DNA of 38,629 bases, taken from a virus. The stretch is from positions 1 to 38,629 of IMG/VR virus record IMGVR_UViG_3300027861_000006. One strand, given 5' to 3'. Below are positions 1-38,629 of this stretch, piece by piece. The position numbers and the translations under genes are program-made. Numbering within the stretch: position 1 is the first letter of the stretch; each line of letters opens with the position of its first letter. Under the pieces are notes generated by a model. It had not been told where the DNA came from and did not search any database. It saw only the letters and a program-made list of their open reading frames with translations.

Positions 1-82
1 GAAATTAAATGGATTAAAAATTATGAGGATATTCTTGCAACATACAATACATCAAAAAAGTATGTCGGCTGCAGGTATGCTT
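1..82 (+). repeat. Left copy of the 82-nt exact terminal overlap
   Basis: Character-by-character identity with 38548-38629. Confidence 0.95.
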
Positions 83-262: not shown

Positions 263-592
263 GTGCCTAAAGTAGCAAATAAGACGCTTTTGCAAGAGGT
301 TGTTGCAGTATTTAAAGCCGTTACAGCATCTGTAGCGATTATAGGAATGCTTGTACTAATCGGCTGGAACGTAAAGGGTGAAGAGCTAGTTGATTGCAGG
401 ATACAGGAAAAAATGAACGACCATGTAAAAGAGAATGATGTTTATATTAAGCAAATTATGACTAACGCGAAGGACGTTGTACAACTTAAAGAGTTGTCTA
501 TGCAAACCCATTTGTTAATTAAACAGCTAACGACTGACGAGATGGAGCGCAGGGCTGACAAAGAATTCGATGAAATTAAGAGGAGGCAGTAA
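263..592 (+). CDS. Type-II membrane protein with one N-terminal TM and a charged coiled-coil tail; holin or i-spanin candidate
   Basis: GTG start 6 nt after GGGAGG. TM segment VTASVAIIGMLVLIGW. Lies directly after two wall-hydrolase-like genes. Confidence 0.5.
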   Translation: MPKVANKTLLQEVVAVFKAVTASVAIIGMLVLIGWNVKGEELVDCRIQEKMNDHVKENDVYIKQIMTNAKDVVQLKELSMQTHLLIKQLTTDEMERRADKEFDEIKRRQ

Positions 593-593
593 C

Positions 594-1970
594 ATGAGAT
601 TATTATTAACTTTACTAATACTTGCAAGTAGTGTTTTTAGTGCTACAGATTATGTAATAGCAGTATTTAAAATTGGCGATCAGGTGTCTAGCAATCCTTA
701 TCTTGACGGTGAGCTTATTGAGATAGTAGATCCTAATGAGCAAGCAGGGAATTTTGTTTTATCCGATAGAATGCAAACTATTTTTTATTGCAGGAGAATA
801 GCACTAAATAAAAAAACGCAATACAGAAATTACATGAAGGTGAATGGTAGCGGTAAATCAAAGTGCATATTAAGGCCAAATAAATTATCTAAAGAAGAAA
901 AAGAGTTGTTGCGAGATGAAAGTGCTATTAAGCCTATACAAAATATTGATGAATCTGTTTTTGATTTTGGCGATAACTTAAATTCTAATGCTAAAGTTAA
1001 AGATAAAAACGCTTGGGTTGGTGGTAGTGTTACGGTTGGTAGTGATGGGGATTATGCTACTTGGGCGTTGTTAGTAGCTGACCTTGGGACTTTTACAAGT
1101 GACGGTACAGCCACGCAAATCAGTAACGTTACTGAAACAATATCATCTATTTTGGGTAATAGTGTCTCTAGTTATACTATGATTCTTGATGGTGGTAACT
1201 ACAAGATAAATCATGTTAATAGAATAATGTATTATACACCAGAAAGCTCCACTGGTACTGGTATTATTAAAAACTTTCATACGGTTAGAACTGCCGATGC
1301 TGCTGCGAATACAGTGCCAGCTATTGTAACAACTGATGTCTCAACCAGTATTACTTATTCGTTTTATAATAACAAGTTTGACGGTGGGGGTTTTAATGGT
1401 CGTGGGCTAGACCTTTCAGATAACACTCCCATATGCGATGTCTACAATAATCTATTTATTAACTATAATGGAAATATAGGATCTATTGGGCTGAAGACTA
1501 CGCTGGTAAATACTTCAACTGTTATTAGCGGAAACACTTTCCTTAATTGTGACATAGGACTTGATTTCAACAGCCAAGACATGGAGGCGCAAAACAACGC
1601 CTCTTTTTGCACTTCTACCGATTATTTTAGTACTGGCTCCCTAACAATGTTCTCAAAATGCGCCTCCTCAGATGCAACAGGTTCAGAGGCGGGGTTACAG
1701 AGTTTAGTAGCAAATACAGTATTTCAGAGCACTACAAGTACAGATGTAAACTTTCTCTATCCTGTAAAAGATGAGGCTTTGTACGGCGCAGGTGCTAACC
1801 CTACAATTTCAGGCCATGATACATATTTCAACAATTACCCAATAATTTTAGGCGATGTTGACATAGGAGCGAATGGCTTGTTAAGGTCAGCATACAACCC
1901 GCATCAAGGCAAATACTTTCGATTTGGCTCAACATTCCCTGAATGGAGTCGCAGAAAACTTAGAAATTAA
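594..1970 (+). CDS. Predicted secreted right-handed beta-helix (pectate-lyase-like) protein; depolymerase/tailspike candidate
   Basis: ATG 594 follows AGGAGG. Sec-like N-terminus MRLLLTLLILASSVFS/ATD. Repetitive N/G/T-rich turns (YNNKFDGGGFNGRGLDLSDN.., VYNNLFINYNGNIGSIG.., ISGNTFLNCDIGLDF) typical of parallel beta-helices. Confidence 0.6.
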   Translation: MRLLLTLLILASSVFSATDYVIAVFKIGDQVSSNPYLDGELIEIVDPNEQAGNFVLSDRMQTIFYCRRIALNKKTQYRNYMKVNGSGKSKCILRPNKLSKEEKELLRDESAIKPIQNIDESVFDFGDNLNSNAKVKDKNAWVGGSVTVGSDGDYATWALLVADLGTFTSDGTATQISNVTETISSILGNSVSSYTMILDGGNYKINHVNRIMYYTPESSTGTGIIKNFHTVRTADAAANTVPAIVTTDVSTSITYSFYNNKFDGGGFNGRGLDLSDNTPICDVYNNLFINYNGNIGSIGLKTTLVNTSTVISGNTFLNCDIGLDFNSQDMEAQNNASFCTSTDYFSTGSLTMFSKCASSDATGSEAGLQSLVANTVFQSTTSTDVNFLYPVKDEALYGAGANPTISGHDTYFNNYPIILGDVDIGANGLLRSAYNPHQGKYFRFGSTFPEWSRRKLRN

Positions 1971-2008
1971 TTAATAGAATACCACAACTCTTACAAGAGG
2001 AAAATATT

Positions 2009-2629
2009 ATGGGAAGAAAAAGCAAAAAGCAATTAGCTAGAGAAGCTAATACGAGCTCGATGGGGCGACAAGCAGACGAAATAGAGACTTCGGGTAGTCG
2101 AGTTACTTACAATGGTAAAAACAAGCTAATGCCGAAGTCTCACAGGGATTTCAATACAGTCTTAACGCACCTAAACCATAATCTTGAATTATTACACAAA
2201 AATCCACCTCCGGGTGTCTCTTTAGTTCACGTAACTGCTTTTGAAAAATTAATGAGTTATGCCTTTAGAGAACCTATTGAAAATGTCGAGATGGTTAAAT
2301 GCACAAATCCCGATTGCAGAAAAATGCACTTGATTGAATGCCCTCATTGTGAAACTTCCCATAGTATTGTTATACCTTCCGCTGTCCATGAAAAAAATAG
2401 CATTGTAGCATTAAATAAATTAATAGATAAATTAGCCCCAAACCTTGCGGCTGTTTCTCAAGATATAAATATTACTGGTTTACAATCTAGTATCACAGAT
2501 TGGGGAGTTAGAATTATTACTAAATATGTTCCTGTTGCAGATCAACCAATGGAAGTGCAAAAATTAAACCAAGCCTTAACAAACGCTGTTGAGGCAGAAT
2601 TCACAGAGGTTCCTAATGTCAAATCATAA
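2009..2629 (+). CDS. Small terminase subunit candidate (basic N-terminus, internal C4 zinc-ribbon-like CTNPDC..CPHC)
   Basis: Lies immediately upstream of TerL and overlaps its start. Assignment rests on position only. Confidence 0.35.
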   Translation: MGRKSKKQLAREANTSSMGRQADEIETSGSRVTYNGKNKLMPKSHRDFNTVLTHLNHNLELLHKNPPPGVSLVHVTAFEKLMSYAFREPIENVEMVKCTNPDCRKMHLIECPHCETSHSIVIPSAVHEKNSIVALNKLIDKLAPNLAAVSQDINITGLQSSITDWGVRIITKYVPVADQPMEVQKLNQALTNAVEAEFTEVPNVKS

Positions 2630-4241
2630 GCCTGTAGCTACCATTAATTCTATTGCAGACGCTATTTCAAAAGGTGTCGCAGAGGGTATTCAGAAAATGA
2701 AAGTTCCTGAATTTATACCTACAGGAGCTTTAGAACCAATGATTAAAGCTGTTGGGATGTTTATATGGGATATTGTTAATGCTCAGTGTGCAAATAAATT
2801 AGGCAAAACCACAATGGTAGTCAATATCCTCAGGAATATTTTTTGGGAACCTGACCTTGAATATTTTGATTACCCCGCCTTCCACGATTGGCCTTATAAG
2901 AATGTTGACGGTGAAATTATTAAGCATGGCCGTATTATCTGCACTGCTGAAAATGCTAAAGAAGATGGGCCTATTGATACCGAGATTAAGAAGTGGTGGC
3001 CTGAAGGTCGATACACAAGGATTAAAGATGGTAAAGGTTATTACTCTAAATACAAAACAGATACAGGTTGGAGCTTTGATATACTTACTTTTGAGCAGGA
3101 TGTAACAGCTTTTGAAGGACCTATGATGTCTTGGCAGTGGTGTGATGAGCCGCCTAAGCCAAAGCTAATGGGAGCGATAATGTCTCGTTTCTCAAAACAG
3201 GGTGTGCTAATGCTTTCCCAAACCCCAATTAATGCAGGTCCATTTATTGATAAATTAGAGGATCTAAAAGAAGTTGGGAGTAGAATAAAAAAGATTGAAG
3301 CTACTATTTACGATAATAGTTCTGAAAGTGGTATTATGAACTCCAAAGGAACTAAGCGTGGATTAATGACAGATGAAGAGATCGAGATATACAAAAGAAA
3401 AATTCCTCTTGATGAACACCCCGCACGTTTAGAAGGTAAAGCTATTGGTAAGAGTGGTAAGATCTACCCTACTTTTGATTTGAATGTGAATGTTAAGCAT
3501 TACGACCTAACCGCTGAAAGTACCAAGCAGTGGAACGGTTACTGCATAATGGATCCTCACGACAAATACTATCCATTCATACAATGGTGGGCTGTATTAC
3601 CCCCTAATGAGATCAACAAGTCGAGATTTGTTTGTTATAATGAATGGCCTACCGTAGAAACCCTTGGTGGCTATTATGACCAAAAGAGAAAAACCGCTGT
3701 TTGCAACTTAGGTCCTGAAGAGATTTCTAAAATAATAAAGCTATTTGACGGAACGCATTTTGGTATTGAGATTAAAAAAAGAGGCATTGACCCAAGGTTT
3801 GCAAGAAACACTGAAAGTAATTATACCAAAGCTGTCGAAGGTATCGTTATCGATTACCTAAAGTACGACATTGAATTTGAACTACCTGATTTGGGATTGA
3901 TTAGTATTGGAAGAAATGCCATAAGAAAAGATATTAAGTACGATAAAACAGCGCCGCTTAGCCTGTATAATGAACCTGACATGGTTATTATGCCACATTG
4001 CAAAAATACCATTCGTTCGTTAGACCGCCATTATTGGGAGAACAACGATAAAGGCACTGAGAAGGAAGCTGAAGAGTTTAAGGACCCTTCTGACTGCGCT
4101 AGAATGTTTAAGGCCTTAGAGGCTAACGTAGGGTGGACTCCTAATAGACCCCCCGTTAAGGTTGCCGATAAAAAGATGATAATTACCGAAAACATTAATG
4201 AGGAGTTTAATAAATCTATTGGGGAGATTGGGTTGGGTTAA
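2616..4241 (+). CDS. terL: Terminase large subunit
   Basis: Walker A-like NKLGKTT and Walker B-like WQWCDEPP. Acidic motifs in the C-terminal nuclease half (IMDPHD, KDPSDC). ATG 2616 overlaps the upstream stop. About 540 aa. Confidence 0.85.
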   Translation: MSNHKPVATINSIADAISKGVAEGIQKMKVPEFIPTGALEPMIKAVGMFIWDIVNAQCANKLGKTTMVVNILRNIFWEPDLEYFDYPAFHDWPYKNVDGEIIKHGRIICTAENAKEDGPIDTEIKKWWPEGRYTRIKDGKGYYSKYKTDTGWSFDILTFEQDVTAFEGPMMSWQWCDEPPKPKLMGAIMSRFSKQGVLMLSQTPINAGPFIDKLEDLKEVGSRIKKIEATIYDNSSESGIMNSKGTKRGLMTDEEIEIYKRKIPLDEHPARLEGKAIGKSGKIYPTFDLNVNVKHYDLTAESTKQWNGYCIMDPHDKYYPFIQWWAVLPPNEINKSRFVCYNEWPTVETLGGYYDQKRKTAVCNLGPEEISKIIKLFDGTHFGIEIKKRGIDPRFARNTESNYTKAVEGIVIDYLKYDIEFELPDLGLISIGRNAIRKDIKYDKTAPLSLYNEPDMVIMPHCKNTIRSLDRHYWENNDKGTEKEAEEFKDPSDCARMFKALEANVGWTPNRPPVKVADKKMIITENINEEFNKSIGEIGLG

Positions 4242-5644: not shown

Positions 5645-6018
5645 TCTCCAATTTTACCGTTTGTGATTTTGGCTCTTTCGTACACTGATATGATGTCATC
5701 GTAATTACATGACCCCGTAGTTACTGGAGTATTACCATTACCATATCTCGCAACCCACCCACTAGATCCTTCTGTTGCTGCCCATATTACGCACTCTTCT
5801 TGAGTGTATGGAACCATTTTCTTTTTTGGGAGTGGTTTGTAGTGATTGTAAAACCCTGCTCTATAAGTATTGTTTCTGTTTTCGAGATTATTAAAATCTC
5901 GTGCGGTTATAGCTAAACACCTTCCATTTTTAAATGTTTTAATAACAGTTGCCTTTGACCATTTTTTCCCATCATAACTAACTAACATCTCTTCAAACAC
6001 ATTATTTTCTACTGACAT
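5611..6018 (-). CDS. Hypothetical protein (135 aa)
   Basis: Co-oriented, abuts its neighbours. Confidence 0.55.
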   Translation of the reverse strand: MSVENNVFEEMLVSYDGKKWSKATVIKTFKNGRCLAITARDFNNLENRNNTYRAGFYNHYKPLPKKKMVPYTQEECVIWAATEGSSGWVARYGNGNTPVTTGSCNYDDIISVYERAKITNGKIGEWEKFEKEVEV

Positions 6019-6338
6019 TATTTATCTCCTTTACTCTTACAACAATTACAAATCCATTCCCATTTACCTTTTCCAACATGTATCTTAAATTTAGGCATCT
6101 TAATCTCGTCTCCACAGTCAATACAAACTATCGGCTTTACCTTCAACACGTCTTTATAAGTGACCAATTCTTTTTCAACTGGTTTTTTATACGCCTTACA
6201 ATTTTTGCCACAAGGGTATTTTCTTGAAGGAAACTTTACACTACACCTTTCAGTCCCCCTAACCCCATGCGCACAGTCACACACAATTAACTTAAACCTA
6301 TCCAGCGCCTTTTTAGACTCATTTGATAATTTAATCAC
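6018..6338 (-). CDS. Cys-rich, multi-zinc-ribbon hypothetical protein
   Basis: CDC..H, CGKNC, CIDC, CNCC motifs. Confidence 0.5.
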   Translation of the reverse strand: MIKLSNESKKALDRFKLIVCDCAHGVRGTERCSVKFPSRKYPCGKNCKAYKKPVEKELVTYKDVLKVKPIVCIDCGDEIKMPKFKIHVGKGKWEWICNCCKSKGDK

Positions 6339-6352
6339 AAATCACCTCTTTT

Positions 6353-6550
6353 CTAATCCCCTCTTAAAACTCTACAATCAAAACCTTTTTCATAATCACA
6401 AAGGCTTGTTTTACGATAATCACACCTCTTGCAAATATCCTTGTCCTCTTTTTCATCCTGCTTAGTAGCACCCCCCTTGCAAAGAGGCAAGAGGGGCTTA
6501 TTGCTAGAATCGTATTTCATCATTAAAGTTTGATGCTGGACCAGCACCAT
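6353..6550 (-). CDS. Small Cys-rich hypothetical protein; start probably the internal ATGATG near 6526
   Basis: CKRC..C..C pattern. 5' end overlaps the ssb 3' end. Confidence 0.4.
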   Translation of the reverse strand: MVLVQHQTLMMKYDSSNKPLLPLCKGGATKQDEKEDKDICKRCDYRKTSLCDYEKGFDCRVLRGD

Positions 6551-6914
6551 TTGGATTACTAGAACCGCCCTGTGAAGCCTGTGGCCGTCCTTGCTGAAAG
6601 GTCCACTGCTCTACAACTACTTCTGTTTTATACCGCTTAGAGCCGCCGTTTTTGTCATCCCAGCTCGTTGTACGCAAAGCCCCTGCTATAATAACAGCAG
6701 AGCCTTTTTTAAACAATTTGCCGATAGTTACCGCTGTTTTGCCAATCGCTACACAGTTGACCCATTCAACTGTATCCACCCAACCCCCAGACTTATCCTT
6801 ATGACCACCCTTACAAGCTACTGAAAAGTTTGCAAAATCCGTTCCGCTACGATTTACGATTTCTGCATCTCGCCCCACCGTTCCTACTAATTTTACTGCA
6901 TTAGTTATTGACAT
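6504..6914 (-). CDS. ssb: Single-stranded DNA-binding protein
   Basis: OB-fold N-terminus (NAVKLVGTVGRDAEI..., TEWVNCVAIGK), a G/Q/P-rich linker and an acidic amphipathic tail FNDEIRF. ATG 6914 lies 6 nt after GAGGAGG. Confidence 0.85.
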   Translation of the reverse strand: MSITNAVKLVGTVGRDAEIVNRSGTDFANFSVACKGGHKDKSGGWVDTVEWVNCVAIGKTAVTIGKLFKKGSAVIIAGALRTTSWDDKNGGSKRYKTEVVVEQWTFQQGRPQASQGGSSNPNGAGPASNFNDEIRF

Positions 6915-7197
6915 TAACAACCTCCTCTTTAGGATTAATTAATGCTGCAGCTTTTCTTTCCAATAAAACTGCCTGTGCTTTACAGAAATTTTGGAATCCA
7001 ACCATTACAGTTTCAGCATCTCCATCGTCAAGCCCCTCTACAAGAACGGCGGTACTTAATTTAAGACTTACGCCACCCGCTATACCCCTTTGCTTAACCT
7101 CGACACTTTTAAGACGCTCTGCGCCCCTTAGAAGAGCTTTCGCTTTTCTTACTTTTGCATTAATTTCTGCAAACATGTCTGTTTGTTTTGCTTCCAT
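6901..7197 (-). CDS. Hypothetical protein (98 aa)
   Basis: Co-oriented. Its stop overlaps the ssb start. Confidence 0.5.
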   Translation of the reverse strand: MEAKQTDMFAEINAKVRKAKALLRGAERLKSVEVKQRGIAGGVSLKLSTAVLVEGLDDGDAETVMVGFQNFCKAQAVLLERKAAALINPKEEVVNVNN

Positions 7198-14082: not shown

Positions 14083-14355
14083 TTATTTTTTAAAAAGTTT
14101 TTCTCTTACTTTTTTACTCATTAAATTCACCGCTTTTCTCCATGAATCGGCGCTTGTATGCCCTACACCATCGATATAAGCAGTGTAGGTTGTCGTGTAT
14201 TCTGTAGCGTTCGAGAACCTTACTGTTTTTTGTGCAGAACAATAGTTATCTCCTATCTTTGACGCTAATTTATTAAGATCATTTTGCGCTTCTTTGCGAT
14301 CGTATTCTTTAGTTTCAACCGTTTTTGGTTGCCTTTTGTTATCCATTTCTTTCAA
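14083..14355 (-). CDS. Hypothetical protein (90 aa)
   Basis: Co-oriented ORF. Confidence 0.5.
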   Translation of the reverse strand: MKEMDNKRQPKTVETKEYDRKEAQNDLNKLASKIGDNYCSAQKTVRFSNATEYTTTYTAYIDGVGHTSADSWRKAVNLMSKKVREKLFKK

Positions 14356-14596
14356 CCTCTTGAACTTTCTTTTTCGCTAATTTAACACTCTGGAGAATAT
14401 CTTTATACACTCCAAGACTCTCAAGTGCTTTGAGCAGTTTATATTTATAATCTTCTGTTAGTTTCAAATGACCGCTTAAGCGTGCTCTAAGAGTTATGAC
14501 ACTTTTGCTACCAATACTCTTTGAGACACGCTCGAATCCTGCTACAGATACAAGCTTTTTAATTTGGAGTTTTGAAATTTCTATCTTTTTAGTCAA
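14339..14596 (-). CDS. Small basic, possibly DNA-binding protein (85 aa)
   Basis: Co-oriented and overlaps both neighbours. Confidence 0.5.
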   Translation of the reverse strand: MTKKIEISKLQIKKLVSVAGFERVSKSIGSKSVITLRARLSGHLKLTEDYKYKLLKALESLGVYKDILQSVKLAKKKVQEVERNG

Positions 14597-15146
14597 TGGA
14601 TATCTCCCCGCATTCTAAAACTCTATGGAATTTATTTGCAATATTAACATTACCCTTTGTGAGCAACTTCTTTTTTAACGTCTTGCTACAATTCTCACTA
14701 TGCATTGCATGAGATAATACATAGTAGAGTTGTTGTATTATTTGCTTATCATCATAGCCGCCCTTTAAATCTCCACAGTGTAGGGGCATACATGAGAAAT
14801 CTAAATTCGAATCACTCAAATTCGAACCTCTCAAATTCGAACCTCTCAAATTCGAACCTCTCAAGTCCGAATAACTCAAGTCCGAATAACTCAAGTCCGA
14901 ACCTCTCAAGTCCGAATAACTCAAGTCCGAATAACTCAAGTCCGAACCTCTCAAGTCCGAACCTCTCAAATTCGAACCTCTCAAATTCGAACCTCTCAAA
15001 TTCGAACCTCTCAAGTCCGAATATCTCAAATCCTTATTTTCTTTAATCGCATCCAGCAGACATCCTTTTGTTGTTTCAAACTCCCCACTATGAATAACTA
15101 ATCCGTTATCCCATCTTTTGATTTCTTCATAGAGTTGTTTCATCAT
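14589..15146 (-). CDS. Pentapeptide-repeat protein (16 consecutive [DN]L[RS][GY]S units)
   Basis: DLRYS DLRGS NLRGS x3 DLRGS DLSYS x2 DLRGS DLSYS x2 DLRGS NLRGS x2 NLSDS NLDFS, flanked by non-repetitive N- and C-terminal domains. Confidence 0.85.
   Translation of the reverse strand: MMKQLYEEIKRWDNGLVIHSGEFETTKGCLLDAIKENKDLRYSDLRGSNLRGSNLRGSNLRGSDLRGSDLSYSDLSYSDLRGSDLSYSDLSYSDLRGSNLRGSNLRGSNLSDSNLDFSCMPLHCGDLKGGYDDKQIIQQLYYVLSHAMHSENCSKTLKKKLLTKGNVNIANKFHRVLECGEISID
14801..15025. repeat. Tandem array of 15-bp units (three near-identical unit types) encoding the pentapeptide repeats
   Basis: Units tcaaattcgaacctc / tcaagtccgaataac / tcaagtccgaacctc lie back-to-back with no spacers. Confidence 0.95.
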
Positions 15147-15417
15147 TTACCCTCATTCCGCTCAATATATCATTCACCACACCAATGCAGGTAACAGTAT
15201 ACAGACCATTCTCCTTACGAAGCGATTTAAGCCCATCTCGCACCGCTTCCCACTCTTCTATAGTCAAGTCCACACCCCTTTTAATAATGCCTCTTAACAT
15301 GCTTCCAATCGTCTTTGGGTCGTCAAGTTCAAACCCTTCCAATACACAATCCTCTAAATGTTCAACGACTTTCAATCTTGAAATCATACTGGCACTTGAA
15401 TTTTCTTTATTACTCAA
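15127..15417 (-). CDS. Hypothetical protein (96 aa)
   Basis: Co-oriented ORF overlapping the start of the pentapeptide gene. Confidence 0.5.
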   Translation of the reverse strand: MSNKENSSASMISRLKVVEHLEDCVLEGFELDDPKTIGSMLRGIIKRGVDLTIEEWEAVRDGLKSLRKENGLYTVTCIGVVNDILSGMRVNDETTL

Positions 15418-16299: not shown

Positions 16300-16328
16300 A
16301 TTATACAGTGTAGATAAGAGTAAGGCAA
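16300..16328 (-). promoter_or_regulatory. Second leftward sigma70-like promoter (TTGCCT-17-TATAAT)
   Basis: -35 at 16323-16328 and a consensus -10 at 16300-16305 (minus strand). Confidence 0.5.
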
Positions 16329-17470: not shown

Positions 17471-17660
17471 TTTATATACTTATATATTATTATATATATA
17501 TTATATATAGTTATTTATTATTAATACTTAGTTATAGTGTTATTTATATATAATATCTAAATATTATTATTACGTTCATACATGCATATACAAGTACCTA
17601 TTGTAATTTTGTTTTTAGTTATTTTTAGTTAGTTTCTTATGTATTGTTTTAGATACTTTA
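17471..17660. other. About 190 bp of almost pure A/T; candidate DNA-unwinding element
   Basis: TATA-type runs and a tandem TTTTTAGTTA x2 at about 17612-17634. Very few G/C. Confidence 0.4.
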
Positions 17661-25398: not shown

Positions 25399-26111
25399 TG
25401 CCTAACAATCAACCTTTATACAGTGAGATTAAAGCTCGTTTAGAGGATTGGCTACAGAGTTCGGGGGGCAGTGTTGTACTGCTGCCCCTTGACCTTTTAA
25501 ATAGGGCGCAAGACGATTTGACGCTACATAAGCAATGGTCTAATATGATGTTTACAGAGGCTTTAACACCTGTTGAAGGAGAGCCTAGAACCTATTCTAT
25601 GCCTGACGGTATGGCTTCTTATCAAATTATCTCTTCAGACCATGACGGAGATGGAAAGCCTGACGAATACTTTTACGACAGGTCTAACCAAGTTAAGGGC
25701 TATAAAGTTGAAGATAGATTTGATATTACTACAGGCCATGCACACGTAATTCTTTTTTATAGAGACCCAAGTGTGCTACCTAATGTTTATTATCAAAAAG
25801 CTTTAACTGACTTTCAGGATACAGACACTCCTCAATACTCGTTCTTTCCAAGTGAACTACTTTTAAGAACTGCTCAAAAGATTCATATTGAAGAAACGGG
25901 GCTTACAAGCTCCGAGGTGACTGTTATTTTAAATAGCCAAAAAACTTTGTTAAAAAATTATACTGCTATTCATCATAACGTGAATACAGATCTGAAAATG
26001 GAAATACTAGACTACGAAGGGCATCCAATACAGACAGAAGCTATTAACCTGACAGGTTGCTTTGATGGCGACCCTGATTATTACAAAGGGCAGGATAACA
26101 GTGTCTTATAG
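25398..26111 (+). CDS. Head-tail adaptor / tail tubular protein A position (candidate)
   Basis: Assigned only by position, directly upstream of the gp12-like gene. Confidence 0.35.
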   Translation: MPNNQPLYSEIKARLEDWLQSSGGSVVLLPLDLLNRAQDDLTLHKQWSNMMFTEALTPVEGEPRTYSMPDGMASYQIISSDHDGDGKPDEYFYDRSNQVKGYKVEDRFDITTGHAHVILFYRDPSVLPNVYYQKALTDFQDTDTPQYSFFPSELLLRTAQKIHIEETGLTSSEVTVILNSQKTLLKNYTAIHHNVNTDLKMEILDYEGHPIQTEAINLTGCFDGDPDYYKGQDNSVL

Positions 26112-27993
26112 CAGAAAGAAAAAGGCCGTAAGGTTTTCTAATTTTTCCAAGGGGCTAAATACCTCTAAAGACTCCACTGTTATTGGAAATCAGCAGGTGC
26201 AAGAGAGTAAAAACGCTATACTACGTGAAAACGGCGCAGACAGGCGACCCGGTACAATTGCTAAAGAGAATTTCAATTTAACAGACCTTATAAAAGGTTT
26301 GCATAATTATTTAGACTTTGTTAATATCGAGCACTTACTCATGGGATCGGGTGGTAAATTATACGATGTAGCAAAGGCAGATGGTGCTCCTACGTTAAGA
26401 TATGATTTGGGCGGTACTGATAACTTTTATTTTGCCGATGCTTTGGGCCGATGCTTTATCGTAAACGGAAACGAAGTTGTTAAAGATGAAGGTGGTACAA
26501 CTTATCAAGTTGGTATAGATGCCCCCACAGGAGCAAGCGCAGGCGTAATTGCGGGCGGTTCGCTAGCAGAGGGTACTTATGGTGTTTATGCAGGCTACGG
26601 ACGAGAAGAGGGCGGCGTAATCGTTCTTTATTCAACAGGTCAATATTTGGGTACAGTAAATTTAACCGCTGGAAATCAAACCGTTCAAGTCACTAATTTT
26701 GCCCAAAGCAGTGACCCACAAGTTGACAAACGTGTTATTTGGATGACTGACGCTGATTTATCTACGGTTTACCGCTACTATACAGCCGATAATGATGCTA
26801 CAGCAACGCACAATGTTACAAGTGATGCCGACAAGTCCGAATCTATTTTATATAGTGTTGACGCTGTTGATAACATTTCAGTTCCAGACTTTGAGCACAT
26901 ACTGGCAGCGGACAACAGGCTTTGGGGTAGTGTTGATAACGTTCTTTATTACAGCTTAATGAATAGCGCTAACCCATATGATTTAGAAAGATTTTTTACC
27001 TTAAATCGAATTACTCTTAAGTATAAGATTACAGGATTATTTGAAGTTCAAGGCAATGTTTACATGAATACGCCGTATGGGATATTTATGCAATCAAACG
27101 CCGATGTTACTGCTAGAACTATCCACGTTGAAAAACGGTGGTATTTTAAGTATATGAATACCGTTGTTGATTATAACGGTGGAAAATTGGGACTAACTAA
27201 TGATGGTGTTAAGTTTTTCGATGGTGAAAAGTTTCTTGATTATGACATATCTGAAGATGTGAAAGCGGAAATTACTAAGATGTATAGTACCGTTTCGGGA
27301 TTCGAGCCTTTTGCTGTTATTATAAGAAGAGATATACGCACAGAATACCATATAAGTTATAATGACAACTCTTTCACAGCAGCTACAAATAATAAAAGAA
27401 TTGTCCTTAATCTTGACAAATTAGCCTATTTACCTGAAAAGCAGGTTACAGCGCCGTGGGAAATATGGGATAATGGCGCAACCCATATGACAACAGATCT
27501 TTCTGGAATTACTTATCAAGCACAGTCGCACGCTACAGCACCTAAGCTTTACGTTGAAAACCCTAATACTACCATAGACAATGGTATCTATCTGCAAAGT
27601 GGAGCTGTTGGTACAGAGGCGAGTTATATAGAGTTGTTGGTTTGCACTAAAACAATTCTACTAGATATGTCGTCACGGTTAGCATGGAATTTATTGCGGG
27701 TTATGGCGAGGCTTTCGGCTAAAGCTACTATTGAGATACATATAAGAGATGTTGAGGGCGAAAACTCTAGTGATTTAGTAGGGGCGGGTGACGAGGTCTC
27801 TTTATGGGATGTCTTTCTTTGGGATGTTGGAACATGGGCAAGTACAACGCCACGATTAATTAAAACTAGATTGCCAGCAAGTTTAAAAGGATATATGATG
27901 TTTGTTAAGTTTTATCAAACTGCAAATGATCCTGAATTTAATATACAAGATATTGTAGTAGAGGGTACAGCCTCTCAGATACGTTTTACATAG
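26062..27993 (+). CDS. Tail tubular protein B / nozzle (T7 gp12-like); likely start GTG 26101
   Basis: N-terminus NFSKGLNTSKD-...-GADRRRPG matches recalled T7 gp12 NLKGGISQQPD-...-GLQKRPP. The spacing between G[IL] and RP is the same (29 aa). Confidence 0.55.
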   Translation: MMATLIITKGRITVSYSRKKKAVRFSNFSKGLNTSKDSTVIGNQQVQESKNAILRENGADRRPGTIAKENFNLTDLIKGLHNYLDFVNIEHLLMGSGGKLYDVAKADGAPTLRYDLGGTDNFYFADALGRCFIVNGNEVVKDEGGTTYQVGIDAPTGASAGVIAGGSLAEGTYGVYAGYGREEGGVIVLYSTGQYLGTVNLTAGNQTVQVTNFAQSSDPQVDKRVIWMTDADLSTVYRYYTADNDATATHNVTSDADKSESILYSVDAVDNISVPDFEHILAADNRLWGSVDNVLYYSLMNSANPYDLERFFTLNRITLKYKITGLFEVQGNVYMNTPYGIFMQSNADVTARTIHVEKRWYFKYMNTVVDYNGGKLGLTNDGVKFFDGEKFLDYDISEDVKAEITKMYSTVSGFEPFAVIIRRDIRTEYHISYNDNSFTAATNNKRIVLNLDKLAYLPEKQVTAPWEIWDNGATHMTTDLSGITYQAQSHATAPKLYVENPNTTIDNGIYLQSGAVGTEASYIELLVCTKTILLDMSSRLAWNLLRVMARLSAKATIEIHIRDVEGENSSDLVGAGDEVSLWDVFLWDVGTWASTTPRLIKTRLPASLKGYMMFVKFYQTANDPEFNIQDIVVEGTASQIRFT

Positions 27994-28003
27994 GAGTAAG
28001 GAA

Positions 28004-29533
28004 ATGAATTTTATCAAAACAATGTACTTAGTGGCTATGGCGTTTTACGCTATTTATGCGTTAGACGATATGACTATACCTAACCCGTTTTCTCCAAATA
28101 CCCCTGCAAGATCTGCTGAGGTTAATGAGAATAATGATAGTACGAAGATTGCATTTAATAGGCTAAATGATACTCTTGCAAATGATTTTACAAGAAATAT
28201 TTATTTTGAAAGTGGCGATACTACCATCAAAACCATTTATGTAGACACCGTAGTTGCTCTTGTTTGCTCAGTTAATGTTCGTGGTTACATGGCAGACCTT
28301 ACAGCGGGTACGGTTAATATTGATGGTGGAACTATCGATGGTGTTACCATAGGAGGCTCTACAGAGGGCGCAGGTTACTTTGACACGCTTCACTCAGTAA
28401 AAGGCATTACTGGGACAGCTTTAAATACAGGACAGGGCTTAAACGAGCTTTACCCTATGGACCAAGCAGTTTTAACGACTTCAGATGTAACTTTCGATTC
28501 TGCTTATGCTGGAAAGGTAGTGACTCCATCGGCTGTTATTACGACCTTAAACGCGAACGGTGGAACAATTGATAATACAATAATTGGCGGTTCGGGAACT
28601 GCTGCAATAAGTGGAACAACAGGAAGTTTTTCGGGAGCATTAACAGGAACAACACTTAATACAGGTCAAGGTGCAAACGAGCTTTATGATATGAACCAAA
28701 ATGTATTAACTACAAGTGATGTTACATTTAACAATGGTACTTTTAATGATAAAGTCTTAATAGACACGCTTTCAAGCAATAGTGTGATAAATCTTTTAAA
28801 AGTAAAAAATAATTATACAGCAGGGTCAGGAACAGGTGATGATGCAGGTTGCTCTATAGAAATGTACAATGGGATTGCAGAAGCAACTGAACCAGCTAGA
28901 CGAGGCGTAATAGAATATTATTCCAAAGGCTTTTTTGATAATCCCGATAATACTTTTTTGCATCTTAATAATTACAAAGGTAGTAAAGATGAAGGACTAA
29001 CTATCACTTATAAAGCAGTAGGGATAGGCACAAGTACCCCAAATGCTTTATTGACAATAGATAGTTCCTTTACGACAAAAGAAGTCTCAGCATTCTCAAC
29101 CCCCTCAAGTGGCTACGGTAAGTGGTACGCAAAAACAGACGGATTACCTTATTTCAAGAATGACGCGGGGACTGAGTATGGATTAGCAGCAGGTTCGGAA
29201 GGTAGTTTTACTGGAACGCTAACAGGGTGCACAACAAGCCCAACCGTAACCGTTTATTATGTTGTTTCAGGAGATTTGGTTACAATGACTATTGGCGATA
29301 TAACAGGGACTAGTAACACCTCAGCCATGTCAATTACAGGAATGCCGTCTGGTATTTGGCCTAATAGCGATCAAGCAATTTCAGTATCAATATTTAATGG
29401 TGGCAGCTTACAATCTGATGCTAGAGTGTGCTTAGTTAAAACAACAGGTGTTATTGAAGTACAAGGGACTATTACAGCGAGTAGTACAAAGGGTTTTAAG
29501 TCTAGCTCCTCTGCTTACAGGACTAACAATTAA
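28004..29533 (+). CDS. Tail fibre protein with a signal/anchor-like N-terminus
   Basis: GGTIDGVTIGGS / GGTIDNTIIGGSG fibre repeats. Duplicated block LNTGQG.NELY.M.Q.VLTTSDVTF. ATG after AGGAG. N-terminus MNFIKTMYLVAMAFYAIYA/LDD. Confidence 0.65.
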   Translation: MNFIKTMYLVAMAFYAIYALDDMTIPNPFSPNTPARSAEVNENNDSTKIAFNRLNDTLANDFTRNIYFESGDTTIKTIYVDTVVALVCSVNVRGYMADLTAGTVNIDGGTIDGVTIGGSTEGAGYFDTLHSVKGITGTALNTGQGLNELYPMDQAVLTTSDVTFDSAYAGKVVTPSAVITTLNANGGTIDNTIIGGSGTAAISGTTGSFSGALTGTTLNTGQGANELYDMNQNVLTTSDVTFNNGTFNDKVLIDTLSSNSVINLLKVKNNYTAGSGTGDDAGCSIEMYNGIAEATEPARRGVIEYYSKGFFDNPDNTFLHLNNYKGSKDEGLTITYKAVGIGTSTPNALLTIDSSFTTKEVSAFSTPSSGYGKWYAKTDGLPYFKNDAGTEYGLAAGSEGSFTGTLTGCTTSPTVTVYYVVSGDLVTMTIGDITGTSNTSAMSITGMPSGIWPNSDQAISVSIFNGGSLQSDARVCLVKTTGVIEVQGTITASSTKGFKSSSSAYRTNN

Positions 29534-30805: not shown

Positions 30806-32908
30806 ATGGCAGTAGCAACAACCGCAGTTAGTACAGAGGCAAAGAAGCCTATTGTGAATTTCCCAACAGTTCAGCCAAACCAGCCTATACCATTGCTTCC
30901 AAATGCAGTGCAACAACCAGTACGCCAACAGCCTGCTGTAATGCCTCAAATACAGCAAGCGGGAGCAGCTACAGGTGCAGGGCAAGTATTTCAGCCTAAC
31001 CTAAGTAAACAGGTGGTCGAGACAGCTCAACAGAAGGCTATACAGGGCACTCCAAGCCAAACAGCTAGTTTAGTGTCCCAAAACGCTCAAAACCTCTTAA
31101 AAGACCCTTCCATGGGAAAAGATTACGACGCTCAAAAAAAGCTTTCTATGGATCAACTTGCTAAACAACAATCTTCTGATTTAGAAAAATTAAGACAGTC
31201 TACAGGTGGAACGGCTAATCTAGGCTTTAATATTGGAAACCTTGCTTCTGCTCAACTACAGCAAAGGCAGGAGAAAACAAATTTATCTCAACAAATGGAT
31301 ATTGACGCACAGCAACAAAAGCTATCTGATGGTTTAGCGGCATTGACCGCAGGACAGCAAACTGTAGGCATGGAACAAAGTTTACAGTCGGGTGATATTG
31401 ATAATCTTATTAAGACATCTGATGGAGCGCTCTCTTTTGCGGAACTCGCTTCTAAAGAGAATATGTTTACAAGTCAGCAGGAATGGGATACTACAGAGTC
31501 TCAATTGCAAAAAGATTTTGAAATGGCTATGACTCAAGGAGATTACGCACAGGCTAATAAGCTTGCTGCTCTGATGAACGACTTTGAGACTGCAAAGCTT
31601 AAGAATCAGCAAGAGTGGCAGAGTGCTGAAAACATTGCTCAAAATGCTTTTAAAAAAGGTATGGTTATGAATGAACAGGAATATGACAAGGCCAAACAAT
31701 ACCTTGCTTTTGAGTTAGAGCAAGCTGCTGCTGACAATGACTTTGAGAAGCACCAGTATCTAATGGACAAACAGCAAGAACTTGATTTACAAAACATGCT
31801 ACAGAGCTTTGACTTTAATAGTAAAATGGCGGTTCTTGATAGTGAGCTACAAACTGCAATTAATAATAACGACTTTGAGCATCAGGCTATTCTTAATAAG
31901 TTTACCCACGGCCTACAAATGCAACAGATAGAGCAAGAGCAAGGTTTTGAAGAAAGTATGAAGTATCTTGATAACGAGCTTGAACTTGCATTGCAGACGG
32001 GCGATTATGAAAATGCTAAAATGCTAAACCAAATGAAGTATGATCAAGAAATGTCAATACATCTTGATAATATGGAGCTTGCTAATATGAAGCTAGATAT
32101 GGAGCAACAGGGCCTTGATATGGCAATGGTTGAAAGTGAATACGAAAAGCTACAAGCTGAAATTGCAGCAGGCAGAGTAGACCCAAGTGCTTCAGTCGAT
32201 TATTTGGAACAAGTTTTTGCAGACTCTTTACCTGAAGGCTTTGAGTTTACAGAACCCGATCCTTATGCCGTACAAGCTGCTTTGAAAGACGATTACCTTA
32301 ATAAGATGTATCAGTATGGCTTAACTCAGGGTGAGGACGCTATGGTGTTTGAAACAGTTACTAATCCTGATGGAACGACTACTGAAGCTTTTGCAGGTTT
32401 GAATGACTCTTATTTAGGTTCCTTTAATGATTACGTTAATGACACTACTTATGCACAAACTGGTACACCTGATGAGGCTGAAATCATCGCGCTTAAAGCG
32501 GGTGACATGCCGATAGACCAAATGGAAAGCAAACATTTCGATTACCTACTTAATGACGTAACCACACCTGAAATCGACTTAGGCATATATCAAGATTACG
32601 CAACACAGGAGGTTGGCTCAGGTAGTAGTTCAAGAACAATTTACCCTGAACTTGAAAACAATGTTGGAGGCTTTACGAATATTGGAGGCGTATTATTTAA
32701 CGTGCAATCAAAATCTATTCTTGATGAGGGTGGTGATGATGTTACAGTTTACAATATCGTAGACGTAGTAACAGGCCAAACCATTGAGATAGCTGCTGTT
32801 GAGAGTGGTTCAACAAGTGCCGACCTTAATTCTCATGGTAATAACGAGCTCCATACATACTTGGAAACAATCAAAAAAGACCCTTATTATGCAAGTAAAG
32901 GAGAATAA
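30806..32908 (+). CDS. Q/N-rich 700-aa protein with repeated [GN]D[FY][EA] helical motifs and an acidic Tyr-rich C-half; internal/ejection protein candidate
   Basis: Q-rich N-terminus. Repeats GDYAQANKL, NDFETAKL, NDFEKHQYL, NDFEHQAIL and GDYENAKML. Confidence 0.6.
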   Translation: MAVATTAVSTEAKKPIVNFPTVQPNQPIPLLPNAVQQPVRQQPAVMPQIQQAGAATGAGQVFQPNLSKQVVETAQQKAIQGTPSQTASLVSQNAQNLLKDPSMGKDYDAQKKLSMDQLAKQQSSDLEKLRQSTGGTANLGFNIGNLASAQLQQRQEKTNLSQQMDIDAQQQKLSDGLAALTAGQQTVGMEQSLQSGDIDNLIKTSDGALSFAELASKENMFTSQQEWDTTESQLQKDFEMAMTQGDYAQANKLAALMNDFETAKLKNQQEWQSAENIAQNAFKKGMVMNEQEYDKAKQYLAFELEQAAADNDFEKHQYLMDKQQELDLQNMLQSFDFNSKMAVLDSELQTAINNNDFEHQAILNKFTHGLQMQQIEQEQGFEESMKYLDNELELALQTGDYENAKMLNQMKYDQEMSIHLDNMELANMKLDMEQQGLDMAMVESEYEKLQAEIAAGRVDPSASVDYLEQVFADSLPEGFEFTEPDPYAVQAALKDDYLNKMYQYGLTQGEDAMVFETVTNPDGTTTEAFAGLNDSYLGSFNDYVNDTTYAQTGTPDEAEIIALKAGDMPIDQMESKHFDYLLNDVTTPEIDLGIYQDYATQEVGSGSSSRTIYPELENNVGGFTNIGGVLFNVQSKSILDEGGDDVTVYNIVDVVTGQTIEIAAVESGSTSADLNSHGNNELHTYLETIKKDPYYASKGE

Positions 32909-33894: not shown

Positions 33895-35115
33895 ATGTCA
33901 CAAGCAAGTAGAGGGGCAGCATTAAGCTATATCGCCCAAGCAGTACCAAGGGTAACACAAGATGTTATTGGCAAGGTACAGGCAGGCAGAGACCGTAAAG
34001 AGGACATGAAGGATAAGGAACTTGAAAGAAAACTGTCTCAAGGCCGACTTGATGCAATGGGACGGCAAGCCACTATAGACGAGCAAAACATAGATACAGG
34101 CGATCGCAAAGCAGAGCAACGTAAAAAAGCATCTGACCTTAACACGAAAATTCAAGCCGACATTTTTGCAGAAGAAATAAAAGTTAATAAGAAAAAAGCT
34201 CTCGATACTGAGCTTGGAAAAATGTCGAAAGAGAAGCTGCAGGTTGAATATGGAGCGGACAATTTAGCGCAAGCCAAAGAATTAGCTTACACAGAAATCG
34301 ATCTGCCTACAGGTGCAACAAAAGAAGATATTGTTAAAAAGTATCGCAATGAAATAGAAGCGCTACAATTTACTGACCCTACTATGCAAGGGCGTATGGC
34401 AGGGATAACCCAAAGGACCAAGAGGGCAGAAAAAAAGGAAGATATTGAAGGTGAAAAATTATTTAGTCAGGGTGAAGGTGCGGTTGATTATGCTAGATCT
34501 GTAGAGTCTCGAGAGGATAAGCAAGAGTTTGAGAGTAGTCAACTGAATAAACGACTTTCTGCACAAGAGAGAATGAAAAAGATAACCAGTGGAGAAGCTG
34601 ACGCTGAAACTAGCGACATACCAGATTTAAAGCCGATTAGTAATATTGCCATTACAAAAGATTCTGTTAAGAGGGTAAAAGAGGCTTATCCTATGATTAA
34701 AGGTGTCTCAAACGAGATCAACGGGCTAAAAGACCTGTACAACAAGGTAGGGATTGAATTAGTTGGTGCTGATGCTGCAAGGTTAAAGTCAAAAGTAAGG
34801 AAAATTCAGCTACAGTTGAAATCGAAAGCCTTTCTCGACCTTGGTGTTCTTAACGGTCCCGATTTAGACTTGCTTGAAGAGGTAGTGCCTGATCCATCAA
34901 CCTTGAAAGCAGGCGCAAAAAAAGCAGCTTTCGGAAAAGTGTTTGAAGGGCAGTTAGGCGAGCTACTTGATTTTGTCGACAGTAGGGGCGAGATGTTCTA
35001 CAGAGCAAATGGTTTTGAGGCTGACAACAAAGGTGTTACGGGGCAAGCGTTCAACTCTACGCCTGTTCAATCAGGAATGTCAGATGATGATTTCAACGCA
35101 GCGTGGGGAGAATAA
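33895..35115 (+). CDS. K/E-rich helical 406-aa protein; internal virion protein candidate
   Basis: Position and composition only. Confidence 0.5.
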   Translation: MSQASRGAALSYIAQAVPRVTQDVIGKVQAGRDRKEDMKDKELERKLSQGRLDAMGRQATIDEQNIDTGDRKAEQRKKASDLNTKIQADIFAEEIKVNKKKALDTELGKMSKEKLQVEYGADNLAQAKELAYTEIDLPTGATKEDIVKKYRNEIEALQFTDPTMQGRMAGITQRTKRAEKKEDIEGEKLFSQGEGAVDYARSVESREDKQEFESSQLNKRLSAQERMKKITSGEADAETSDIPDLKPISNIAITKDSVKRVKEAYPMIKGVSNEINGLKDLYNKVGIELVGADAARLKSKVRKIQLQLKSKAFLDLGVLNGPDLDLLEEVVPDPSTLKAGAKKAAFGKVFEGQLGELLDFVDSRGEMFYRANGFEADNKGVTGQAFNSTPVQSGMSDDDFNAAWGE

Positions 35116-35117
35116 CA

Positions 35118-38254: not shown

Positions 38255-38629
38255 ACCAAGCGTTAAAGCAAGATCCAACAAAGTTATATGTCGCTTTCCA
38301 CAGAGGTGGCAAAAGTGACCTGAAAACAAGGCTAGTGTCTGCAATGTGTAAGATTTTTACCAATAGCGATTATCGAGAAGGGAAAAAACTAGGAATTAAC
38401 GACACTCGTTTTGCACACACAGAATTAATCTTCCCTAGATCTATTGCAGAAGATAAAAGGTGCTACTCTTCAAGAGGTACTGACGACCCAAGCGGTGTGA
38501 GCTTTAAGGACATAAAATTTTCTCACCCTGAAAGATGGACTTTTGTTGAAATTAAATGGATTAAAAATTATGAGGATATTCTTGCAACATACAATACATC
38601 AAAAAAGTATGTCGGCTGCAGGTATGCTT
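38251..38629 (+). CDS. 5' part of the junction-spanning permuted NlpC/P60 (YiiX/C92-like) ORF (continues at 83-261; 185 aa in total)
   Basis: ATGA overlap with the upstream stop. Runs off the window end in phase with position 1. Confidence 0.5.
   Translation, partial: MNQALKQDPTKLYVAFHRGGKSDLKTRLVSAMCKIFTNSDYREGKKLGINDTRFAHTELIFPRSIAEDKRCYSSRGTDDPSGVSFKDIKFSHPERWTFVEIKWIKNYEDILATYNTSKKYVGCRYA
38548..38629 (+). repeat. Right copy of the 82-nt exact terminal overlap
   Basis: Identical to 1-82. 38548 is in codon phase with position 1. Confidence 0.95.

Follow-up and report, generated by a model that had tools for sequence, protein, structure and literature searches.

The minus-strand gene at 14589..15143 of IMG/VR virus record IMGVR_UViG_3300027861_000006 (analyzed over its full 38,629 nucleotides, hereafter "the window") encodes a pentapeptide-repeat protein that belongs to a large, undescribed family of modular phage proteins, in which a rod of repeats is followed by a Cys/His-containing C-terminal domain. 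What the family conserves is this C-terminal domain and not the rod, which is encoded by a 15-bp tandem array of unstable length. We tentatively favor an early accessory protein that would bind a host factor via its C-terminal head and the outward face of its rod, with counter-defence as the most likely role. The gene and its product comprise:

14589..15143, minus strand: likely coding sequence of the pentapeptide-repeat protein, 184 amino acids plus stop (open reading frame (ORF) list, GAGGG spacing and public gene call).
15150..15154, minus strand: Shine-Dalgarno-like GAGGG (direct sequence reading).
15033..15146, minus strand: N-terminal cap module, residues 1-38, EIKRWDNGLVIHSGEFETTKGCLLDAIKENK (alignment with N-terminal regions of other phage pentapeptide-repeat proteins).
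14793..15032, minus strand: 16-unit pentapeptide array, residues 39-118 (PF00805, unit list, AlphaFold2 and Foldseek).
14592..14813, minus strand: conserved C-terminal helical domain, residues 112-185, overlapping the last repeat (28-sequence profile and conservation table).
14803..15033, unstranded: 15-bp DNA tandem array (Tandem Repeats Finder).

Residues are numbered throughout in the 185-residue form, i.e., from the first in-frame ATG (15146) of the listed ORF 14589..15146 (-). The public gene call (P0001) is 184 residues long, and the GAGGG lies 6 nt 5' of the ATG at 15143; therefore this second ATG is the likely start of the gene.

The C-terminal domain is the part by which the family can be defined. 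A motif, LDFSCxPLWCGxL..YDDKQIIQQLYH...ANKFHRVxECG, is shared by 42 of the 120 best homologues, and the window protein carries it as LDFSCxPLxCG...YDDKQIIQQLY...ANKFHRVxECG. A profile of this ~70-residue domain (profile A3), built from 28 sequences, retrieved 1,291 cluster representatives (50% identity) at E<=1e-3 and 637 at E<=1e-10, and matched the window protein at E=1.6e-29 over residues 112-182, directly after the repeats. Among the 146 best-scoring further matches examined, the domain always stood downstream of 1-27 pentapeptide units. Pfam, PHROGs, NCBIfam and PDB sequences returned no match for it; modeled alone by AlphaFold2 it formed five short helices with high confidence (predicted local distance difference test score (pLDDT) 89.7), and this model had no PDB fold match (best E=3.6). 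Across 186 unique sequences the most conserved positions were D115 (99%), C123 (96%), D131 (96%), Q137 (98%), H141 (97%), N170 (96%), H173 (98%), E177 (91%) and C178 (92%), with Y140 and F172 also among the family-conserved residues. The tetrad Cys123-His141-His173-Cys178 (CHHC) was complete in 153 of 189 sequences, and such conservation suggests a structural metal site, putatively for zinc.

The same residues could instead be read as a small catalytic centre, i.e., a Cys-His-Asp triad of a protease, deamidase or transferase, for which the beta-helix would serve as targeting arm. D115, C123 and H173 are 96-99% conserved, and NleL and SopA, effectors in which a pentapeptide beta-helix stands ahead of an enzymatic domain, were among the fold matches via their beta-helix domain. 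Such a centre is nevertheless highly improbable in our judgment: the domain has only ~70 residues in five short helices and matches no enzyme fold, and two Cys plus two His fit a structural metal site at least equally well.

The flanks of the array, 38 residues on the N-terminal side and 67 Cys/His-containing residues on the C-terminal side, had both been described as unique domains in the initial annotation. The C-terminal one is distinct, whereas the N-terminus is a recurrent cap module (EIKxRxxGxVI...KxxLxxAIK), which alignment found also on phage pentapeptide-repeat proteins with different C-terminal domains. Therefore these phage proteins are modular, a repeat rod being combined with one of at least two types of N-cap and one of at least three classes of C-terminal domain: i) the Cys/His domain of the window protein; ii) DUF5758 (PF19062); and iii) the class of P0053 and P0030. 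The DUF5758 phage proteins share the SDLRG-type array, in some cases together with the same N-cap (P0017), and produced strong repeat-driven matches; they differ in their C-terminal domain, which is beta-rich and ~105 residues long. Moreover several members with the Cys/His domain carry extra parts: in some (P0134, P0136, P0232, P0239 and P0249), a Cys-rich tail with CPxCG-type (zinc-ribbon-like) motifs follows the C-terminal domain, and two others (P0195 and P0223) have an additional N-terminal domain of ~85 residues. These added tails and N-terminal domains point to further modularity.

Between the two flanks, residues 39-118 form exactly 16 pentapeptides without interruption, as initially annotated, in the order DLRYS, DLRGS, NLRGS (three times), DLRGS, DLSYS (twice), DLRGS, DLSYS (twice), DLRGS, NLRGS (twice), NLSDS and NLDFS. 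The Pfam PF00805 match was far above chance (E=1.8e-39; 133.3 bits against a cut-off of 20.2), and the 16 units compare with the at least eight contiguous A(D/N)LXX pentapeptides by which the superfamily is recognized. In the AlphaFold2 model (42-sequence alignment; mean pLDDT 82.7), confidence was ~89-94 across the array, with one bridge per five residues, and 85-98 over the C-terminal part, while residues 1-27 were below 50. Foldseek matched the model to solved pentapeptide-repeat structures with probability 1.0. Thus the quadrilateral beta-helix that had been expected from the repeats is what structure prediction returned as well. Fold matches of the whole model were mostly generic beta-helix proteins, and those among predicted viral structures were phage "pentapeptide repeat" proteins without assigned function. 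The best match normalized to the target was the cyanobacterial lumenal protein Rfr32 (PDB 2g0y / 2f3l; template modeling (TM) score 0.67), which likewise has a short beta-helix followed by C-terminal helices, but whose sequence identity is 16-18% and whose biology is unrelated; the C-terminal domain of the window protein taken alone lacked a PDB fold match. The predicted rod has ~4 coils without loop interruptions and, at the beta-helix rise of ~4.8 Å per coil, an estimated length of ~20 Å.

The rod is repetitive in DNA as well as in protein: the array at 14803-15033 has a 15-bp unit in 15.4 copies with 89% matches and a 45-bp higher-order period. On its opposite strand, ORF 14705..15046 (+), whose 113 residues are SNSNL-type repeats, does not extend beyond the array; it is an artefact that mirrors the tandem repeat, and comparable antisense ORFs are present at homologous loci.

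The length of this array changes between close relatives. A sister contig (L001), from a different sample and of the same phage type, is 99.97% identical to the window along 10.2 kb flanking the array on one side and 98.7% identical along 6.1 kb on the other. Outside the array the two genes have the same DNA sequence; within it, the gene of L001 is exactly 165 bp (11 units) shorter, in frame, so that five repeats stand in place of 16. Collapse of the repeat during assembly was considered for the short allele and rejected: the contig name (k141) indicates a k=141 assembly, and because the 75-bp array fits together with both unique flanks within one 141-mer, we infer that the short allele is read-supported. 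Across the long (16-unit) array, all 99-mers and 141-mers are unique. Five further allele groups have the same caps and differing repeat numbers: four pairs of 153/191, 159/113, 188/138 and 194/274 residues, and a fifth (P0010/P0063) noted by eye. Thus array length is polymorphic in six lineages, the window and L001 included, and family-wide the repeat number ranges from 1 to 27.

Each lineage examined has a 15-bp DNA array (79-93% matches) with its own codon set, which means that gain and loss of units drive concerted evolution under protein-level constraint on S/A-D/N-L. This observation bears on the notion that the array acts as DNA, be it as iterons of an origin or as a hot spot of recombination, or is a fast-evolving repeat without a specific protein function. 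Near-identical 15-bp units of unstable copy number, ~0.9 kb upstream of a DnaD-like initiator gene, would be in keeping with it. However, the codons differ among lineages while S/A-D/N-L is kept, which places the constraint on the protein; in every case conserved coding caps enclose the array within one long ORF; and the C-terminal domain is conserved in >1,000 clusters. We therefore consider a role at the DNA level, or the lack of a specific protein function, very improbable.

The family is a family of phage early regions: all ten relatives that could be located lie in early regions of phages or prophages, with cI/cro/xis-like switch genes, DNA methylases, a Gad2 homologue, single-stranded DNA-binding protein (SSB) and recombination genes as neighbors. 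Specifically, in two loci (L003 and L004) the family gene is second after a cI/cro-like switch; in Blautia phage Montmirail and a prophage of Ihubacter sp. rT4E-8 it follows a xis-like regulator; in L002 it has small genes around it, along with methylases, NinG and ParB; in L012 the member at 6001..6420 shares its early run with a homologue of the anti-Gabija protein Gad2 (PF26128; 1187..1858) and a cytosine methylase (2409..3539); and in L013 it is among small early genes beside MazG-like and DUF5131 ORFs, with a Rep3-type initiator ~3.4 kb away. The temperate L004 (GCA_016852305.1, contig JAEIGA010001194.1) has two paralogues, 1447..2016 and 6373..6942. An all-against-all BLASTP of the ORFs within 3 kb at 13 loci found no conserved partner gene, only occasional replication genes, and no plasmid copy of the family was found.

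Searches of 50,697 GenBank phage records (INPHARED) with the 13-17 kb region (megablast) and the whole protein (tblastn) returned nothing, under a low-complexity filter that masks the array. With the C-terminal domain as tblastn query, the same records yielded only Montmirail, the single complete cultured-phage genome among them to match, and one faecal fragment. The Montmirail protein WAK79216 (ON453898 5720..6013), annotated as a "pentapeptide repeat family protein", is 44% identical to the consensus query over the C-terminal domain and is likewise encoded in an early operon, just after an excisionase/regulator gene; in contrast to the window protein it is 97 residues long, with ~2 repeats, and its N-cap is of the other type (EELQKILEAHKKWI), while Montmirail itself is temperate and siphovirus-like and has a gut Firmicute as host. 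Among 185,579 reference genomes, a first scan with patterns of the closest subfamily confirmed no relative, and a second pattern, ANKFHRVE, found six genome loci. The genome matches were in Bacillota, Muribaculaceae, Dehalococcoidia and Syntrophaceae assemblies, and thus the hosts are mostly anaerobes or gut bacteria.

An experimental precedent for such a protein exists in Vibrio phage 24. According to a preprint (10.1101/2024.07.02.601686), phage mutants that escaped Sucellos, a RexAB-like abortive-infection system, all carried Y112R and N110/N115D changes in 24_60, deletion of 24_60 made the phage much more sensitive to Sucellos, and the repeat region of the gene was hard to assemble. The product, gp60 (SBVc24_0060, KJ572844 12900..13322, L020), resembles the window protein in several respects: i) it has an N-cap helix, near-identical A/S-D/N-L-R-G units and a small (~80-residue) C-terminal domain; ii) it is encoded by a 15-bp DNA array (93% matches, against 89% in the window); iii) it is an accessory gene, surrounded by small early genes and close to genes for methylases and replication, gp60 itself coming after two methylases; and iv) its escaper changes (N to D, Y to R) hit the outward positions that distinguish the unit types of the window protein (N/D, RG/SY). 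In GenBank, gp60 has 140 residues with repeats ending near residue 61, whereas the preprint places the mutations at 110-115 within repeats and calls the region mis-assembled; the deposited KJ572844 record probably under-counts the gp60 repeats. By analogy with this architecturally equivalent protein, an anti-defence function for the window protein is plausible.

Under the counter-defence reading, the near-identical [S/A][D/N]L[R/S]x units form a rigid rod between the N-cap and the C-terminal domain; the Cys/His head, whose CHHC tetrad may bind zinc, would together with the outward repeat residues (D/N, R/S and G/Y) bind a host protein. The host target would most probably be a defence sensor or effector, engaged otherwise than by B-DNA mimicry. 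Slippage or unequal recombination, by adding or removing 15-bp units, could quickly alter the length and surface of the rod. In temperate relatives the gene stands first in line in the lytic early operon, and in the window it belongs to the leftward replication arm.

Several observations weigh against this reading. Support for counter-defence in the window family comes by analogy, and the gp60 precedent comes from one preprint. The C-terminal domain of gp60 is unrelated to that of the window family (hhalign probability 0.1%); thus gp60 is an architectural analogue and not an orthologue, with no homology beyond the repeats. PADLOC-DB gave no match for the window protein, two relatives or five neighboring ORFs; the term "pentapeptide repeat" does not occur in the text of the EVADES preprint or of an anti-defence diversity survey (PMC11724313); and location in an early region is common to many unrelated functions. 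As to the head, the tetrad of the window protein reads C-Y-H-C (H141 replaced by Y), as in only three of 189 sequences, and ~19% of the family lack one ligand, so that a strict zinc site is uncertain. In the window protein a His replaces the usual W122, adjoining C123, and is a possible substitute ligand. Besides its C-terminal domain, which is related to that of P0053 (E=2e-7) and P0030, gp60 differs from the window protein in host phylum and phage type.

The counter-defence reading has a stronger form, in which the 15-bp array is a contingency locus: gain and loss of units would retune a rod with a zinc-binding head, providing standing variation against variants of host defences or a way of escaping their recognition. 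We regard this form as unlikely.

Another explanation is a replication or recombination accessory: the protein could be an adaptor or scaffold of the replisome, or could shield the ends of phage DNA by inhibiting RecBCD/AddAB of the host. The gene recurs near genes for DnaD-like initiators, DnaB, SSB, RecT/Erf and exonucleases: the second L004 paralogue directly follows an SSB gene and overlaps its end, SSB lies within 2-3 kb of the family gene in L006 and L007, and DnaD and DnaB are downstream in the window. On the other hand, no replication gene is a constant neighbor, and in temperate relatives the gene lies at the front of the early operon, far ahead of the genes for replication. Moreover CP-T1, a relative of phage 24, apparently has no counterpart of gp60, which together with the variable repeat length suggests an accessory rather than a core gene, and the charge data given below do not support a mimic of DNA ends. 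A replication role is thus doubtful.

The initial annotation had pointed to a B-DNA mimic of the Qnr/MfpA/AlbG type, whose targets would be gyrase or topoisomerase IV, or which would occupy the DNA-binding site of restriction or DNA-sensing enzymes and so block them. The window protein shares with these proteins the right-handed quadrilateral pentapeptide beta-helix (predicted here), and MfpA, QnrB1 and AlbG were among the Foldseek matches. Its gene lies near replication and recombination genes. Moreover RexAB-type systems, the target of gp60, are thought to sense DNA-protein complexes, so that a decoy is conceivable.

However, several results count against this reading. In the Foldseek comparison MfpA, QnrB1 and AlbG reached TM-scores of only 0.2-0.3, and the NCBIfam models for Qnr (NF033086) and MfpA (NF000349) scored 27.0 and 26.4 bits against cut-offs of 240 and 360 respectively. 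Qnr structures have ~214 residues and ~9 coils in a beta-helix interrupted by loops A and B; Qnr, MfpA and AlbG have 8-10 coils per monomer and a C-terminal dimerising helix. The window protein, on the other hand, has ~4 uninterrupted coils without loops A and B and a different C-terminal domain, and its units are homogeneous, repetitive at the DNA level and variable in number. Nor is the surface DNA-like at the level of sequence charge: whereas DNA mimics of the MfpA, Ocr and ArdA type are strongly electronegative, in imitation of the phosphate backbone, the window protein is neutral (net charge 0, isoelectric point (pI) 6.95), with a repeat region of -1 whose end coils are slightly positive and middle slightly negative, and the family (178 members) shows no acidic bias (median net charge -2, median pI 5.9, pI range 4-10). 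Dimensions that match B-DNA are not conserved either, with five versus 16 repeats in sister phages, and a rod of freely variable length is hard to fit to a defined DNA-binding groove. A review of protein inhibitors of gyrase covers the phage peptides Igy and Gip and cellular pentapeptide-repeat proteins, and no phage pentapeptide-repeat protein (PMC10886550). Charge, scores, loops, coils and length thus each count against a T-segment/B-DNA mimic, and neither this role nor that of a topoisomerase modulator is supported; we consider it quite unlikely, weak DNA-like behaviour being conceivable.

The window itself is a complete circular assembly of ~38.5 kb, given the 82-bp exact direct overlap of its ends (1..82 and 38548..38629), and represents a lytic-looking, SU10-like phage. 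The plus strand encodes an SU10-type major capsid protein (Pfam E=1e-17) and a portal, and the minus-strand block at 4.1-16.2 kb contains the repeat-protein gene followed by those for a DnaD-like initiator, DnaB helicase, RecT and an exonuclease. The sign of the GC skew switches at ~4 kb and again at ~16 kb. Compared with its nearest cultured counterparts, which come from phages of Microcystis, Roseobacter and Caulobacter, the capsid protein shows only 23-26% identity, and the phage is very distant from described groups. The window contained no tRNA and no Rfam family. Around the repeat-protein gene, approximately the fifth in the leftward operon, lie:

15127..15417, minus strand: upstream ORF of 96 residues, sharing ~17-20 nt at its end with the start of the repeat-protein gene.
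14339..14596, minus strand: downstream ORF of 85 residues, sharing 8 nt at its start with the stop end of the repeat-protein gene.
16300..16328, minus strand: best sigma-70-like promoter match, TTGCCT-17-TATAAT (consensus scan), at the head of the leftward operon; the scan is a pattern match only, with a site total not above shuffled expectation.

The upstream overlap suggests translational coupling. Neither the 96- nor the 85-residue ORF had a significant PHROG, Pfam or PADLOC match. Two genes downstream, the 90-residue ORF 14083..14355 (-) had a weak partial PHROG match to nicotinamide-nucleotide adenylyltransferase (E=1.9e-4), which is probably spurious. The initial annotation had placed the gene in the early arm of a phage: that the genome is a phage and that the gene lies in its replication arm both held, while early expression is what the gene order suggests.

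Elsewhere in the window, five large plus-strand ORFs of 466-700 residues (570..1970, 2589..4241, 26062..27993, 28004..29533 and 30806..32908) had no PHROG or Pfam match, and a large terminase was not recognized. The 916-residue protein of 35103..37853 (+) has an ART-PolyVal ADP-ribosyltransferase domain (Pfam E=2.6e-11). It is probably one of the large "polyvalent" proteins that are ejected, and is itself a candidate for host takeover or counter-defence; the unrelated temperate phage L003, which also carries a member of the repeat family, encodes an ART-PolyVal protein of 2,451 residues. AT-rich tandem repeats (17472..17556, periods 10 and 31) lie in the gene-poor ~16.2-18.1 kb between the divergent blocks, and the cumulative GC skew has its minimum near 16 kb; this region may contain origin or regulatory elements.

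Phage pentapeptide-repeat proteins are routinely annotated and then ignored or labeled as Qnr-like resistance genes. The C-terminal Cys/His domain defines a large group among them (>1,000 clusters at 50% identity, mostly from uncultured phages of gut bacteria and anaerobes), in which the beta-helix is a rapidly expanding and contracting module, and which has culturable members in Blautia phage Montmirail and the Ihubacter prophage. If the counter-defence reading is true, the group would be a common new class in the anti-defence repertoire and would be a warning not to take such genes in phages for determinants of quinolone resistance. If, furthermore, the array is a contingency locus, the group would represent a widespread, length-variable class of counter-defence proteins in gut and anaerobe phages.

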